DNA from: Escherichia phage LF82-10
Length of the DNA: 52,895 bases
Reading direction: 5' to 3' (one strand)
Sequence record: PV660453
The notes beneath the pieces were generated by a model. That model ran no database searches. It was given only the letters and a program-made list of their open reading frames with translations, and had not been told where the DNA came from. Shown here piece after piece: positions 23,537 through 52,133 of this stretch. The translations under genes were made by a program, and so were the position numbers. Numbering within the stretch: the stretch's first letter is position 1; each line of letters starts with the position of its first letter.

Positions 23537-25899
23537 TTCAGCAATAACGACTCAAGTTTAGCAAGGCGCTCTTCCATTTCCTCCATTCTGTTACCCATGT
23601 AAACCATAGCACAGGCCATATCAGTAAGCATGACGTTTGAATCAAGAGCTAGCGTATCGTCCTTAAATCCAGTCTCGATCTGCCTGGCAACGTACTCCTC
23701 ACCATTCTCGTTGACTCCGATAACATCTTCAAAGATCGGAGCGCCAGGGACTACTTTCACATACTGACTATCAACTTTATTCAAGTCCTGAGCAATCAGA
23801 CCGAATCTCTGTGTGTCAGATCCCTTATACTTGAACATGGTTGGGAGCCACTGCATTACGCGATCATAGCTCTCCTTTCCTTCGGTGTATTTGATATCCC
23901 ACTTAAGATCCCGGTCAGACGTTGGCGCTTTCTGGAATGTATACCCCCCATCCCATCCTCCACCCTGACCCCATGAGATAATATCTGATGATGGTGCATG
24001 GAATTCAAATCCGCGATGGTACGCACCATCACCAAGCATCTTAATTACTGCGCGAGGCCATCCGTTGTTCCCGCTAGAAATCATACCAAGAGAGGTATTC
24101 ATTCGATACCCGCCAGTTGATGTGGTTGCCCCTGAGATCAATGAAGCATATCCGGCATCATTACCCGTTACATCACCAGCAAAGAACGTACTCCCCATGT
24201 AATCATTTGGCTGCGCCCAACCTCCTTGAGTTAACTTACCAAGAAACCCCCTTGGAGAAGATATGTGACCGCCGTATGAGTTTATGAATTTAAACTCCTT
24301 CCAGTCACTTCCTTGGTTGTTCACTCCGATCTTGAAGTGATCAATATCAGTGCCACTACCGCGAACCCCCCCAATCTGCCAGTAACCAGAGTACCAGTTA
24401 CCTTGAACCAGGTTAACCCAACTATTAACAGAGCCATCACCAGCAGCGTTTTGAATCAGGATGTTTTTGTTTCCGCCACTCTGAGTTGAAACAACGATCG
24501 ATTTACCCTGCTTTGCCTCTACGTTTCCGTTTGTTGCAACCAGAGCGCCGCCGCTAATCGTTCCGACGGCTGTCAGCGATGCAACTCCGGTAATGTTCCC
24601 CGCCTCATCAAACTGATAGTAGTTCCCCTTTCCTCCAGCCGTGTTTGCCGTGTGAATCGTTGTCTTTACAACGCCGCCTTGTAGTTCATTGTAAAATCTT
24701 GAGTTTGATTGCAGCGTTGCGCCGTCAGCAGAAAGCCTTTTACTCTCAATCAGCCCCCCACTAGTTGCTGAGCCAAGTGTTGTAGCCTCCACGCCTCCAA
24801 ATCTCACCGCTTGACCCGAGCCGATACCAAGATTGTTTCTTGCTCCGTCAGCAGTTGTTGATCCAGTGCCACCAGATCCGATAGGGATCGGGATTACATT
24901 TCCGTTACTATCCTGCCACTGGAAAATCCCATCATCGCCAATCGTCAGCCTTTTTGTTCTATCTGGCGTGCTAATGTAGTTACGCGTTCCAATGTGGCGC
25001 AGCCAGTCAAGATCAAGGTTCGTCCTCGCGGCTTGTACGTCAGTAAGATCAGATAGGTTATTTGCCTTCTTTAGCTGTTCGTCAGGGTTAGCCGTTGCTG
25101 CGCGGTCTGCTTCAGCCTTGGCTCGTGCTGCATCGTCACGAGCGGCGGCGGCAGATTGCCCGGCGCTGGTTTCGCTGTTTGCTGCATTCGTCTCGCTTAC
25201 CCTGGCGGCATCCTTGCTGGCTCCGGCTTGGGTTGCGGCAACTTCGGCGGCTTGACGATGCGCGGCAGCTTCGCCGTTAGATTGAGCGGCTGAGCTTGCG
25301 CTATTACCCGCATTTGTCTCGCTAGTCTTCGCATTGAATGCAGAATCGGCGGCAGCGTTCTTTGCGCTTGTTGCGGTTGCAGCGTCAGCGGCGGAGCTAG
25401 ATGCAGATGCGGCAGCGGCGTTTTTATCTTGCTGTGCAGACTGAGCAGATCCGGCGGCGGCGTTCTTGCTTGCCTCAGCTTCGTTTGCGTTAACTTCAGT
25501 ACGATCAGCATCAACGCGAACGGCAGACTGAAGATCTTTCAGCTCTTGCAGGTTAAAGTTCTTGAAGAAATCCATAGCCTCCTCGATCACAGTTTCCTTG
25601 CTTTGGTAGTAGCGCAGAGTTTCAGCCACATCTTGAGCAAGGCCATCAACAGTGATTGAGTCATGCAGCAGGATTACATAGTTCGTACCATCCGGCACAA
25701 CTGCATCATCCGTTTGGATCGCTCGCATTTCCGTGTCACTCACGATCGCGGAAATAGTAACCAGCGTTAGTGGTTGAGTTAAAAACACCATCGTTGCCCC
25801 AACGCGAATCAGAGACAGCTTGTCTTGCCATTTCGTATCAACGCCAGTTACAACGCCGTTAGCGGCCAATCCCGCCGTTCCTCTACGATAAATCGCCAT
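23533..25899 (-). CDS. tail fibre with C-terminal intramolecular chaperone (S74-like) domain
   Basis: ATG at 25899 (SD AGGTG); Ala/Ser/Asn-rich low-complexity segment; C-terminal region (DRDLKWDIKY...LIAQDLNKV...LAKLESLL) resembles auto-cleaving fibre chaperone domains. Confidence 0.75.
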   Translation of the reverse strand: MAIYRRGTAGLAANGVVTGVDTKWQDKLSLIRVGATMVFLTQPLTLVTISAIVSDTEMRAIQTDDAVVPDGTNYVILLHDSITVDGLAQDVAETLRYYQSKETVIEEAMDFFKNFNLQELKDLQSAVRVDADRTEVNANEAEASKNAAAGSAQSAQQDKNAAAASASSSAADAATATSAKNAAADSAFNAKTSETNAGNSASSAAQSNGEAAAHRQAAEVAATQAGASKDAARVSETNAANSETSAGQSAAAARDDAARAKAEADRAATANPDEQLKKANNLSDLTDVQAARTNLDLDWLRHIGTRNYISTPDRTKRLTIGDDGIFQWQDSNGNVIPIPIGSGGTGSTTADGARNNLGIGSGQAVRFGGVEATTLGSATSGGLIESKRLSADGATLQSNSRFYNELQGGVVKTTIHTANTAGGKGNYYQFDEAGNITGVASLTAVGTISGGALVATNGNVEAKQGKSIVVSTQSGGNKNILIQNAAGDGSVNSWVNLVQGNWYSGYWQIGGVRGSGTDIDHFKIGVNNQGSDWKEFKFINSYGGHISSPRGFLGKLTQGGWAQPNDYMGSTFFAGDVTGNDAGYASLISGATTSTGGYRMNTSLGMISSGNNGWPRAVIKMLGDGAYHRGFEFHAPSSDIISWGQGGGWDGGYTFQKAPTSDRDLKWDIKYTEGKESYDRVMQWLPTMFKYKGSDTQRFGLIAQDLNKVDSQYVKVVPGAPIFEDVIGVNENGEEYVARQIETGFKDDTLALDSNVMLTDMACAMVYMGNRMEEMEERLAKLESLLLK

Positions 25900-41274: not shown

Positions 41275-41514
41275 TTACCCCTTGATAGTCAGGCCGAAAG
41301 CCTCAACCAGAATGTCACTTGCAGCGTGCATTTCGCAACGAGCAACCTCACGGTCATCAAAATTCTCTACAGCGTACATCACAACACCACGAGCCTGATC
41401 AGCTTCTACAAACTGGTTGCAACGGTCATTCAGTTCTTTCGCTAACTCAGCGTCAAAATCAGCCGTTACGCCTTCGATAAACTCCGCCTCGGTGATGATG
41501 TTCATGTAGCGCAT
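41275..41514 (-). CDS. hypothetical acidic protein (first gene of leftward accessory operon)
   Basis: 79 aa; downstream of box 41575-41589 and -10 TATAGT. Confidence 0.4.
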   Translation of the reverse strand: MRYMNIITEAEFIEGVTADFDAELAKELNDRCNQFVEADQARGVVMYAVENFDDREVARCEMHAASDILVEAFGLTIKG

Positions 41515-41574
41515 TGCTGTTTCCTCAGTTCGTTTCGTTGAGATAACTATAGCCGAAACATCCTGAGTGGTTTT

Positions 41575-41589
41575 AGCAAAAAGTGCTAT
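41575..41589 (-). promoter_or_regulatory. TAGCA-box (TAGCACTTTTTGCTA), first of leftward accessory operon
   Basis: -10 TATAGT 41546-41551 (minus). Confidence 0.55.
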
Positions 41590-41602
41590 TGATTCGATTT
41601 AT

Positions 41603-41664
41603 CCAATTATTCCATTATTCCAACTATTCTGGAATATTCCTGAATAACCGAATATCTGGAATAG
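41603..41664. repeat. cluster of GGAATA/TATTCC motifs including perfect palindrome GGAATATTCC (41631-41640)
   Basis: ATTATTCCA x2, GGAATATTCC, CTGGAATAG in 62 bp; GGAATAATTGGAATAG recurs at 42931-42946. Confidence 0.6.
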
Positions 41665-41709
41665 TCAAAATGACTATGGCTCTCCGTTCGTTTTAGCGAA
41701 CAAACGTTC

Positions 41710-41730
41710 GATGTGATGTGATGTGATGTG
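41710..41730 (+). repeat. (GATGT)4 microsatellite
   Basis: GATGTGATGTGATGTGATGTG. Confidence 0.8.
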
Positions 41731-41899
41731 AATGAGGGTGAGGAGGCGATCAGATCTGATCCCGAAACTTTTTCCCTCACCGCACGATTTGCTAATGAAT
41801 TGTCGTGCCTGTAGTTGTATGTTGTGTTTTACGTTTTCCGTGGAAATCGGTACGCGCTACTACGCGGAATAACAATGTTATGCTTTATATATAGATATA

Positions 41900-41950
41900 T
41901 AAGTATATATAAAATAAAGGTTTTTTATTATATATATTATCTAATTTCAT
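41900..41950 (+). repeat. AT-rich element (TAAGTATATATA...GGTTTTTT...ATCTAAT), copy B
   Basis: homologous to 20839-20880. Confidence 0.6.
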
Positions 41951-42162
41951 AACACTTTATAACGTGTTGTGTTTGTTCCGCCGGACGCGGAGTGATTGAT
42001 ATGTTTCGCGGCCTATTTATGCCTATATTGTGAAATATGGGTAGGGGGATATATACCCCTCCGAAATCCGCAACAAACGCTTAATACGCACTACAACCCA
42101 GCAGGAATGCACCATGTAGAGGAGATTTTGTTGATAATGGCAATAATCGACACAAATTAATC

Positions 42163-42191
42163 TTGACTACAATTAAGCTTTTCCGCATTAT
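42163..42191 (+). promoter_or_regulatory. sigma70-like promoter TTGACT-17-CATTAT for rightward accessory operon
   Basis: hexamers at 42163-42168 and 42186-42191, 33 bp upstream of 42224. Confidence 0.55.
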
Positions 42192-42223
42192 GGCGGCTCA
42201 ACCAATCAGATGAGGTATCACCC

Positions 42224-42721
42224 ATGACACTTGCAGAAGTATTGCGCTATATGGCAACCGAAGCCATGAAATCCCCTGAGAAGGAGATCACCGTGCCAGT
42301 GTGGCAAATCCTGGTTCAGGCACACAATCTGGACGCTGACGAGCGCCGCGCATTACAGGCAGACTTTGACAAGCGCGTTGAGCTGGTAGCAAGTGAGAAG
42401 CGCCTGACCAACTCGTACATCACCAACACCTGCAACCGCATGAAGGAAATGATCGCGGCTGACCTATCCATCACCACAAAGCGTGGCGAGGACGACGGCG
42501 GGAATCGGACGCTCACCCTGGGCGTTAAGCCCGGCGCAATGAAGCTGGGCAGTCGGAGCAAGTCGGAGAACATCGCGGCGAAGAATGCAGTGCAGGATTT
42601 TGCCCGGCGCATCATGGAGATTGCCCCAGCACTAGATAGCCTGAGCGATGATCGCGTTGCTGGTGCCGTCGATGGCGTGCGCATGATGAAAGAGCTGATT
42701 GCCAGGGAGGCCGGACTATGA
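42224..42721 (+). CDS. hypothetical protein (first gene of rightward accessory operon)
   Basis: 165 aa; SD GAGGT; downstream of sigma70-like promoter TTGACT-17-CATTAT (42163-42191). Confidence 0.45.
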   Translation: MTLAEVLRYMATEAMKSPEKEITVPVWQILVQAHNLDADERRALQADFDKRVELVASEKRLTNSYITNTCNRMKEMIAADLSITTKRGEDDGGNRTLTLGVKPGAMKLGSRSKSENIAAKNAVQDFARRIMEIAPALDSLSDDRVAGAVDGVRMMKELIAREAGL

Positions 42722-42930
42722 AGCTTCGAATAGCTATCGTTTCCGTTGTGCTGCCATTCAGCGGCGAGCGCAAAAACACATACGCCGTTCAAAAGCGGAT
42801 CGGCTTCTTCTGGTGGCAGACGCTTACCCTGTGTGACAGCTTGCCCCAGGCGCGCCACTATGTACGCCACACCCTGGAAGATCGCAGTGGTGAAAAGCTG
42901 GTCAAGGTTCTGAATCGTTATTCCTCTTGA
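42718..42930 (+). CDS. hypothetical protein
   Basis: 70 aa; ATGA coupling. Confidence 0.35.
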   Translation: MKLRIAIVSVVLPFSGERKNTYAVQKRIGFFWWQTLTLCDSLPQARHYVRHTLEDRSGEKLVKVLNRYSS

Positions 42931-42945
42931 ATGGAATAATTGGAA

Positions 42946-42960
42946 TAGCACGAACTGCTA
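42946..42960 (+). promoter_or_regulatory. TAGCA-box (TAGCACGAACTGCTA)
   Basis: preceded by GGAATA repeats; -10 CATAAT 42983-42988 inside palindrome GGGGCTATGCCATAATAGCCCC. Confidence 0.55.
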
Positions 42961-43019
42961 AAACACCAGATCGGGGCTATGCCATAATAGCCCTACACCA
43001 ACAAAACGAGGTTAGCACA

Positions 43020-45396: not shown

Positions 45397-45762
45397 ATGA
45401 AAGTTAAATGCATTAGTTCAGACGTTTTGCTTGATGGTTACTACACCCCAGGTAGAGTCTACCGATTAAGGCGAGAAAGGGGCAAAAGCTATAGAACCGT
45501 TAAATCAAACAGAGGCGTTGATCTTGGTGTTATCCACGACCCATTAAAAAGAGGTCGGTTTTTCGTTGCTGGATTTGAACGTTGTGTGTTTGATTCGGCT
45601 CCGCACCGATTCGTGAAGCGCAACCAAAGCGCCGCGCTGGGGCAGATTGAGATCGACTATACGCGATGCAAGCGCAGCATTCGCAATCAGGCTCGCAACA
45701 TCGCAAAAGAGCACTTCTCGTGCGGCAAGCTTGAGAAGATTGCGCGAGGCTATAAGCGATAG
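45397..45762 (+). CDS. hypothetical basic protein (MKVKCI, MKxKC-family)
   Basis: 121 aa from ATG 45397, SD CAGGAG. Confidence 0.45.
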   Translation: MKVKCISSDVLLDGYYTPGRVYRLRRERGKSYRTVKSNRGVDLGVIHDPLKRGRFFVAGFERCVFDSAPHRFVKRNQSAALGQIEIDYTRCKRSIRNQARNIAKEHFSCGKLEKIARGYKR

Positions 45763-50476: not shown

Positions 50477-50905
50477 ATGAAATTACGTTGCACATTCCTT
50501 GAGCCAGCTTTCGCAAAAGCTCTGGCTGAGTTCTACACCATCGGCAAAACTTACGCCGCATCCATCAAGCCGGGATCAAAGGTTGGCGCTGTGCTGGTGG
50601 AGTCAAACGAAGGCAATGAAGGCGATCAGCTTGCAGCAGTTCCGAGCCGCTCAGGGTTCGAGGTTCAAATTAAGAACCAAATTCCGATCGCAAAGTTCGA
50701 GGTTGTTGGCAAGCGTGCGGTGAAGCTTGTTAAGACTGAGAAGCGCGTAACGCTGAAACTTGATGGCGTGGGGAAATCAGATAAGCGCCGATTCCGCCGT
50801 GTTTGCCGCCAGTATCGAAAGTTGAAATTCATCAACCCTGGATTCTATTATGATCTGGAATCCGATCGCCACATGGCTAAACTTGCGCGACATCACCGCC
50901 GATAG
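50477..50905 (+). CDS. hypothetical basic protein (MKLRCT, MKxKC-family)
   Basis: 142 aa; SD AGAAGGAA. Confidence 0.45.
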   Translation: MKLRCTFLEPAFAKALAEFYTIGKTYAASIKPGSKVGAVLVESNEGNEGDQLAAVPSRSGFEVQIKNQIPIAKFEVVGKRAVKLVKTEKRVTLKLDGVGKSDKRRFRRVCRQYRKLKFINPGFYYDLESDRHMAKLARHHRR

Positions 50906-51745: not shown

Positions 51746-51927
51746 TGGCAGGATTTGACAGCACGAAAAAAGACGCTACGCAAGAAGAGTGGAAGGAACA
51801 GCTTGATTGCATCGTCGAACTAAACGGCTACAACCCTGATTTCATCCCTGATTCATGGCTTGATGCATATGATGGCGGCGCTGAAGTGGCTGATTTCTTT
51901 TACGATAACTATGACTCGGAGGAATAA
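51745..51927 (+). CDS. highly acidic small protein
   Basis: 60 aa, ~30% Asp/Glu with aromatic residues; TAATG coupling. Confidence 0.4.
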   Translation: MAGFDSTKKDATQEEWKEQLDCIVELNGYNPDFIPDSWLDAYDGGAEVADFFYDNYDSEE

Positions 51928-52133
51928 TGTTTAAGCATCTGCCAAAGAAAGGCGAAATCATTCGCTGTGATTCAGTAGTTGGAGCCGCGCCGTTTATGGT
52001 TGGCGTTGAGTACACCGTTGAACATGTTGATCGCAAAGTTGGTCACATCTACGTTTACGGTGACGAAGGCAACCTCGAGGCGATCGACTACCCGCAAGAC
52101 GCTGTACACGGAAAGTTTTCAAAAGTTGATTGA
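51927..52133 (+). CDS. hypothetical protein
   Basis: 68 aa; TAATG coupling. Confidence 0.4.
   Translation: MFKHLPKKGEIIRCDSVVGAAPFMVGVEYTVEHVDRKVGHIYVYGDEGNLEAIDYPQDAVHGKFSKVD

Follow-up and report, generated by a model that had tools for sequence, protein, structure and literature searches.

A stretch of 52,895 nucleotides from Escherichia phage LF82-10 (record PV660453; hereafter the window) contains, in a 709-bp non-coding region at 41515-42223, an array of short GGAATA-type hexamers followed by a tandem (GATGT)4.4 tract. These appear to belong to two neighbouring modules, each conserved on its own, in the region of early control and packaging start of T1-type phages. The array itself (module A, 41608-41663) is tentatively read, at a rough probability of 0.45, as an operator for a phage DNA-binding protein that would control the first box promoters, adjoining the zone of the packaging cut. 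The box is a 21-nt intergenic repeat of Drexlerviridae, published for phage TLS with the consensus aaATAGCACnnnTTGnTAAAA, and the function of the intergenic repeats is listed by the TLS authors among the open questions (PMC11447400). The array is of the ordinary multi-site protein-binding kind in a phage control region and does not represent a new kind of element. By gene order and content the window phage is T1-like (Drexlerviridae-type), and its nearest relative appears to be Vilniusvirus NBD2. Coordinates are those of the window throughout; in record PV660454.1 (Escherichia phage LF82-11), record position equals window position plus 84. The features are collected in Table 1.

From left to right, the eight hexamers of module A read TATTCC, TATTCC, TATTCT and GGAATA on one side of the dyad and TATTCC, TGAATA, CGAATA and GGAATA on the other. 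Exact copies of GGAATA or its complement TATTCC start at 41608, 41616, 41631, 41635 and 41658, and copies with one mismatch start at 41625 (TATTCT), 41641 (TGAATA) and 41649 (CGAATA). The dyad centre of the array is 41635/41636, inside the palindrome GGAATATTCC (41631-41640), and the array consists of two head-to-head tripartite units (41608-41636 and 41635-41663) to which the central GGAATATTCC is common. Each unit is about 26 nt long and follows the formula TATTCC-N8/9-GGAATA-N2/3-GGAATA. At the left end, two copies of ATTATTCCA form a direct repeat at 41605-41621 (period 8, 2.1 copies, 100% match in Tandem Repeats Finder, TRF). The initial annotation had listed direct repeats, a palindrome, further GGAATA copies and GATGT units, each of which is present in its place, whereas the mirror-symmetric array that the hexamers form and a complete second unit at 42919-42947 had not been described.

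Throughout the window, GGAATA occurs 37 times against an expectation of 19.3 +/- 4.0, a count reached in none of 100 shuffles, and the five exact copies within 56 bp are the densest cluster of any hexamer in the genome. At least five copies of some hexamer within 61 bp were obtained in 6 of 200 dinucleotide shuffles, and thus the copy count alone corresponds only to a p of about 0.03. It is the comparative evidence, not the copy count, that appears decisive for an array not formed by chance.

The comparison covered about 60 partial Drexlerviridae loci, with T1-like contigs taken from IMG/VR via the small terminase and helicase. The tripartite GGAATA unit was found in 23 distinct sequences, including T1 and IMG/VR contigs of several clades. 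In 19 of them, exactly 16 nt separate its start from the first leftward box, and in the remaining four an extra TATTCC at 15 nt stands ahead of the unit. Hexamer 2 is exact in 19 of the 23 and hexamer 3 in all 23, while the 8-9 nt of spacer 1 take 17 different forms; the search pattern demanded the first hexamer, which brings some ascertainment bias into these counts. Near-invariant hexamers with drifting spacers are the usual signature of half-sites contacted by a protein. The GGAATA/TATTCC type is shared by the window phage, T1, Vilniusvirus (NBD2, KLB19 and HazelMika), Eclunavirus (Phc), Shigella and Escherichia phages of the T1 clade (Shfl1-type) and Klebsiella phages. Other clades carry other motifs at this place: TTGCA-N5-TGCAA four times in Rtp/Rogue1-type phages, where about 26 nt separate the box from the first dyad centre, just as in the GGAATA type, and AGACCGATTGGTCT twice in TLS and Stevie. 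The densest hexamer cluster of the genome lies at the homologous spot in the window phage, T1, NBD2 and TLS; in JulesPiccard, an ATTGCA/GCAATA cluster there ties for second place, the top cluster being at 25.0 kb. The initial annotation had proposed comparing the repeats among relatives, and in this comparison the GGAATA unit proved to be conserved, whereas the GATGT repeat form did not, a degenerate GAT-rich tract standing in its place.

When the relatives are read side by side, the family order is first leftward gene, box, short-palindrome cluster, GAT(G/T)-rich tract with purine-rich G tract, AT-rich tract, sigma-70 promoter and DUF7174 gene. The only close relatives available, four isolates (LF82-11, -12, -19 and -40), are 100% identical to the window over 41300-42400. 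BLAST of the region against relatives matched little apart from the box, and the protein of the first rightward gene, R1, found no relatives when used as a query against IMG/VR. A scan of contigs with a 14-mer common to T1 and the window (GAATATCTGGAATA) returned mostly chance matches and was discarded. The array carries no annotation in the matching records and is not mentioned in the searchable literature, including the TLS paper (PMC11447400).

About 25 box copies occur in the window, for example at 41572-41589 on the minus strand, at 42945-42962 on the plus strand, at 45759 and at 50902. Of 21 good copies, 19 have a -10-like hexamer exactly 20 nt past the 18-nt box core, a distance that would make the box span about -50 to -33 of a promoter. 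Owing to this rigid geometry, the array has a defined promoter position, about -69 to -124 with respect to the first leftward box promoter. The array does not match the box consensus, which is placed about 76 nt before the start codon in the transcription direction; the elements at 41572-41589 and 42945-42962 do match it. A second, perfect unit is fused through its last hexamer to the first rightward box, and the junction GGAATAGCAC of this unit with the box is the same as the GTGCTATTCC junction at the main site of T1. The calculated chance expectation for an 18-base pattern like the unit at 42919-42947 is about 2e-5 per genome. A recurrence of array sequence just upstream of the rightward box, already pointed out in the initial annotation, corresponds to GGAATAATTGGAATAG at 42933-42948, which overlaps the start of the box at 42945.

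The box has some further features of its own. Its imperfect dyad, TAGCA-N5-TGCTA, is centred near -42, where class II activators sit, and its TTGnTA, with 22 nt between it and the -10 hexamer, is too distant for a normal -35 element. The 20-nt spacer between box and -10 hexamer often contains a GC-rich hairpin and then a T-run, so that a terminator and a promoter overlap there. In the abstract of the Rtp genome paper, an Rtp52-type regulator was reportedly proposed to read the box.

According to the operator reading, an oligomer of a phage-encoded sequence-specific DNA-binding protein would assemble on module A, and the bound protein would switch the first leftward and first rightward box promoters on or off, either by contact or by competition with the occupant of the box. 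With the second unit joined to the box of the first rightward promoter, the protein would presumably act on both of these promoters. Four features point to such an operator at the first box promoter of each arm: the spacing to the box is fixed across clades while the intervening sequence has diverged, the first dyad is equally placed in the GGAATA and TTGCA types, hexamers are fused to boxes at two different promoters, and the geometry is one of short period and mixed orientation. Regularly spaced inverted and direct half-sites, hexamers kept with drifting spacers and a fixed promoter position are what was found, as is usual for operators; together with the second unit at another promoter, they support the 'multi-site regulator binding region' that had been one of two suggestions in the initial annotation.

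Several observations weigh against an operator. A simple repressor would hardly be expected to act from as far upstream as the dyad centre, at about -96. The array is so close to the mapped genome end that a role in packaging fits equally well, and the exact ends of T1 and TLS rest on database records. No second unit at the rightward box was seen in the stretches of T1, NBD2/KLB19 and Phc examined. Other T1-like contigs have complete secondary units within coding sequence, 500-700 nt away from the nearest box (L187 6687, L181 7254, L184 7084, L232 13947 and L233 14181), which a purely promoter-linked role does not predict; their hexamers are kept among diverged copies while neighbouring synonymous positions vary. 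The small terminase, of the P22 gp3 family, and an Rtp52-like regulator with a weak helix-turn-helix match are the only recognisable sequence-specific DNA binders in the genome, and Pfam and PHROGs revealed no further DNA-binding domain among 57 small proteins. Comparison of the small and large terminases, the portal, the Rtp52-like regulator and R1 in five genomes gave no pattern matching the array type, and among 36 loci, where the presence/absence signal is dominated by one closely related clade, no gene family was both common to all those of the GGAATA type and lacking in the rest.

The best correlate of the array type, from a separate scan of R-arm genes, is a 68-amino-acid protein (51927-52133), found in 12 of 15 GGAATA-type contigs and in 0 of 11 contigs of the TTGCA or GGTCT/AGACC type. 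It was rejected as the reader protein, being absent from three GGAATA-type contigs and not resembling a DNA binder. PDB sequence searches with R1 and the Rtp52-like regulator found nothing, and no ribbon-helix-helix protein was recognisable among the 57 small proteins in Pfam or PHROGs. Sites of host factors (ARG box, IHF, H-NS and DnaA) were considered by eye, and none fits the unit spacing.

To the right of the array, module B (about 41686-41761) begins with a small palindrome, continues with the GATGT tract and a purine-rich G tract, and closes with a palindrome that has three GATC sites. This module is most likely the site of the first terminase cut, because it is homologous to the zone in which virion DNA starts in T1 and TLS. 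The T1 record has an annotated 2.8-kb terminal repeat at its start, and position 1 of this record falls 37 nt rightward of the last GGAATA in T1, within a GATGTGATT repeat (...gagatgtgatt/gttgcatgg..., the slash marking the start). The TLS record starts in the equivalent GAT-rich tract (...gattgatgtgtg/agattttg...), its pac site having been located by restriction mapping of a submolar pac fragment and then fixed by weak resemblance to the P22 site (PMC11447400). The records of Rtp and Rogue1 open at most 7 nt from the T1-equivalent position, those of several T1-clade phages open 54-88 nt further right than T1 position 1, and the authors of SU57 placed the genome end in the untranslated region corresponding to 41515-42223. 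The record of the window phage is circularised at terS, and its pac is placed by homology with T1 and TLS only, which would put the cut here. fEg-Eco19, with ends defined by PhageTerm, was set aside as a comparison, not being a T1-type phage.

The (GATGT)4.4 tract is the sole perfect tract with at least four copies of a 5-6-nt unit reported by TRF in the window. It seems to be a lineage-specific (LF82) expansion of a family-wide GATGTGAT/GATTGTG tract; GATGTGAT occurs three times in the tract and only three times elsewhere in the genome. At this position relatives have a degenerate GAT-rich stretch and no microsatellite. That the records of T1 and TLS end at such a tract, which links it to pac, had not been mentioned in the initial annotation. 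The densest GATC cluster is at the homologous spot in NBD2, TLS and T1 (in T1 a tie, with two sites), all of which encode Dam, whereas JulesPiccard, which lacks Dam, has no such cluster and contains 79 GATC sites against 186 expected.

The nearness of the two modules leads to a different reading of the array, as the recognition part of pac. The small terminase, as a ring oligomer, would wrap the hexamers, and the large terminase would cut within the GATGT/GATC zone, at a point 40-130 bp to their right. A second anchor might be provided by the unit at 42919 or by the lone GGAATA at 41866, like pacL and pacR in SPP1, and the GATC cluster might gate cutting through Dam methylation, as in P1. The genomes of T1 and TLS do end just to the right of their arrays, with other T1-clade records opening in the more distant zone given above, besides the small terminase the genome encodes just one other recognisable sequence-specific DNA binder, and the GATC cluster follows the presence of Dam. 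The secondary units in coding regions also keep a role in terminase recognition alive, and in general hexamer arrays flank the pac cut of P1 and repeated boxes occur in the pac of SPP1. However, the recognition sequence does not covary with the small terminase. In a matrix of 22 phages the small terminases do not split by array type, those of GGAATA-type phages being 52-67% identical, while a GGAATA-type contig and a phage with a different array form a pair 74% identical. Moreover, small terminases of the P22 family are known to read a single asymmetric 22-bp site rather than arrays, packaging offers no obvious reason for the 16-nt spacing to the box or for hexamers fused to boxes at two promoters, and the mapped end of T1 lies at the edge of TTGCA palindromes, not at the GGAATA unit. 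Recognition by the small terminase is possible, although on balance unlikely; it is not mutually exclusive with the operator reading.

A broader proposal joins the array, the GATC cluster and the GAT-rich tract into a composite pac, read by a small terminase of the P22 gp3 type or by an adaptor protein. Such a pac might couple the initiation of packaging to early leftward shut-off, possibly gated by Dam, and the array swaps between clades (GGAATA, TTGCA and AGACCGATTGGTCT) might set packaging specificity groups in Drexlerviridae. This is a doubtful proposal, to which we would give rather low odds.

With respect to P22, its pac core GATTTATC is present at 41596-41603, between box and array, its sole other copy being at 25887-25894 on the minus strand. 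This 8-mer match alone is weak evidence, and Rtp-type phages have GATTTAT at the equivalent place. The T1 record also has, to the right of the genome start (stretch 100-430), a second leftward box at about 103-120 with upstream repeats of its own: GATTACGATTACG, ATTACGCC twice and GATTAACAC three times. After injection, this second leftward promoter would face outward, about 100 bp from the left DNA end.

A replication origin, with the hexamers as iterons, the AT-rich tract at 41870-41959 as unwinding element and the GATC cluster acting as in oriC, is improbable. Repeats, AT-rich tract and GATC cluster do fall within one 350-bp non-coding stretch between divergent transcription units that is kept throughout the family; no origin has been mapped in T1-type phages, and no iterons were found elsewhere in TLS (PMC11447400). 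Against this, the half-sites are 6 bp long, mirror-symmetric and spaced at 8-9 bp, unlike direct iterons of 17-22 bp, no initiator-like family was found among the scanned proteins, and DnaA boxes are not enriched (41 versus 38.9 expected), with none in the array. The 'iteron-type origin' suggested in the initial annotation is therefore not supported. The AT-rich tract beside which the array had been said to lie is real (12-13% GC), but 200 bp containing further conserved elements separate it from the array, and the position of the array is tied to the promoter box, not to this tract. The tract could be an unwinding element, bent DNA or a silencer. The turn of the GC skew at 41-42 kb is uninformative about an origin because it coincides with the switch in gene orientation.

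Slippage-based phase variation, in which (GATGT)4 would act as a contingency microsatellite switching a neighbouring gene, had also been put forward in the initial annotation. The tract is indeed a perfect pentanucleotide repeat in non-coding DNA between two promoters, but it has only 4.4 units and is situated outside any promoter spacer, 5' leader or credible open reading frame (ORF): the inferred leftward start is about 170 nt downstream of it, and the sigma-70 promoter is about 430 nt away. The four LF82 isolates are identical at the tract, and since relatives carry a degenerate GAT-rich tract, it is the sequence type rather than the repeat number that is conserved; this explanation is effectively excluded. 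So, even more firmly, is a chance or compositional effect of AT-rich non-coding DNA, which the shuffled genomes with equally dense hexamers would allow, given that the unit, with spacers that vary, stands at the equivalent position in 23 distinct relatives, that the window genome has another perfect unit of 18 bases, and that the homologous spot holds the top hexamer cluster of four genomes and one of the highest-ranking clusters of a fifth.

Table 1. Sequence features in and around the non-coding region 41515-42223 (window coordinates)
Feature	Position	Strand	Remarks
L1 gene, first leftward	ORF 41275-41514	-	ATG at 41514
-10-like hexamer TATAGT, first leftward promoter	41546-41551	-	inferred transcription start near 41539
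First leftward box core ATAGCACTTTTTGCTAAA	41572-41589	-	about -50 to -33 of first leftward promoter
GGAATA-type hexamer array, eight hexamers	41608-41663	both orientations	mirror-symmetric, 8-9 bp period
Perfect palindrome ATAGTCA-AAA-TGACTAT	41661-41677		adjoins last hexamer of array
Palindrome GTTCG-N6-CGAAC	41686-41701		geometry and relative position as T1 GTTGC-N6-TGCAAT, just before GAT-rich tract (by inspection)
(GATGT)4.4	41710-41731	+	100% match, TRF score 44
Purine-rich G tract TGTGAATGAGGGTGAGGAGG	41727-41746	+	GTGAAATGAAGGGGTGAGTGAG or GATTGTGAGAGGGGGG there in relatives
Perfect 14-bp palindrome GATCAGATCTGATC with three GATC (Dam) sites	41748-41761		genome maximum, tied with two other 40-bp windows
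Degenerate box ACCGCACGATTTGCTAAT	41779-41796	+	3 mismatches; similar sequence in Vilniusvirus
Isolated GGAATA	41866-41871	+	directly before AT-rich tract; position kept in NBD2, KLB19 and HazelMika
AT-rich tract of TATATA/ATTATT type, 90 bp	41870-41959		12-13% GC; position kept in every relative examined
Sigma-70 promoter TTGACT-17-CATTAT	42163-42191	+	sole canonical one in region; drives R1
R1, first rightward gene, DUF7174	42224-42721	+	family-wide, highly divergent (20-36% identity)
Second, perfect unit TATTCC-N8-GGAATA-N3-GGAATA	42919-42947		last hexamer fused to first rightward box, core 42945-42962

On one side the non-coding region is bordered by small leftward genes and on the other by a rightward block running into the terminase genes. 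The sigma-70 promoter at 42163-42191 has equivalents of the form TTGACx-17-xAxAAT in relatives, and with R1 it probably forms an immediate-early transcription unit. An ORF of 57 codons overlies the array and tract; it was rejected as a gene, having a GTG start, no ribosome-binding site and no homologues, and the region is non-coding in relatives. Rfam returned nothing over the region other than a sub-threshold match to GcvB (E = 0.99). In the deposited circular record, the window start falls 84 nt into the small-terminase gene, which is therefore truncated at the window edge (positions 1 and 52895).

T1 is a classical phage, yet its regulatory circuit, its origin and the sequence of its pac have still to be defined. 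The compact site now delimited, about 26 nt long, is conserved from T1 to phages of Klebsiella and Enterobacter, with clade-specific replacements, at a fixed position beside the first early promoter and the packaging start, and two questions about T1, the control of early transcription and the definition of pac, become directly testable with it. The unit is a precise bait for its reader protein and a marker of the early-control and pac region in new genomes. It also offers a sensible point of attack for those who wish to engineer T1-type phages, or to disable them; these phages are notorious as contaminants of laboratories and as generalised transducers.

Among known systems, the Drexlerviridae box is the closest in place, being a repeated, protein-site-like element of the same family and intergenic region, with the array 16-19 nt from one box and fused to another. 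The box differs in sequence and is universal in the family, with about 25 copies, one per transcription unit, whereas the array has one main site with occasional secondary units and is replaced by other motifs in other clades. Iteron origins, such as lambda ori and those of plasmids, likewise have repeats in non-coding DNA with an AT-rich tract nearby. They differ from the array in the length, orientation and spacing of the unit, and the array has no adjacent initiator gene and no enrichment of DnaA boxes. In P1, pac contains TGATCA/G hexamers on both sides of the cut and depends on Dam, and in SPP1 it is composed of pacL, pacC and pacR. The array resembles these sites in its clustered short repeats at most about 100 bp from a mapped packaging start, in the GATC cluster of Dam-encoding phages and in an isolated copy past the presumed cut. 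It is unlike them in that GATC is absent from the GGAATA hexamers, terminase similarity does not track the array type, and the terminase belongs to the P22 gp3 family, in which the site known to be recognised is one 22-bp sequence. Arrays read by ribbon-helix-helix repressors are exemplified by omega of pSM19035, which binds 7-bp heptads in direct and inverted orientation, and by MetJ, which binds tandem 8-bp metboxes. The likeness to these operators is one of working principle only, and no candidate protein was recognised in the genome; it extends to very short half-sites, a period of 7-9 bp, mixed orientations, a variable copy number and a position upstream of or overlapping promoters.

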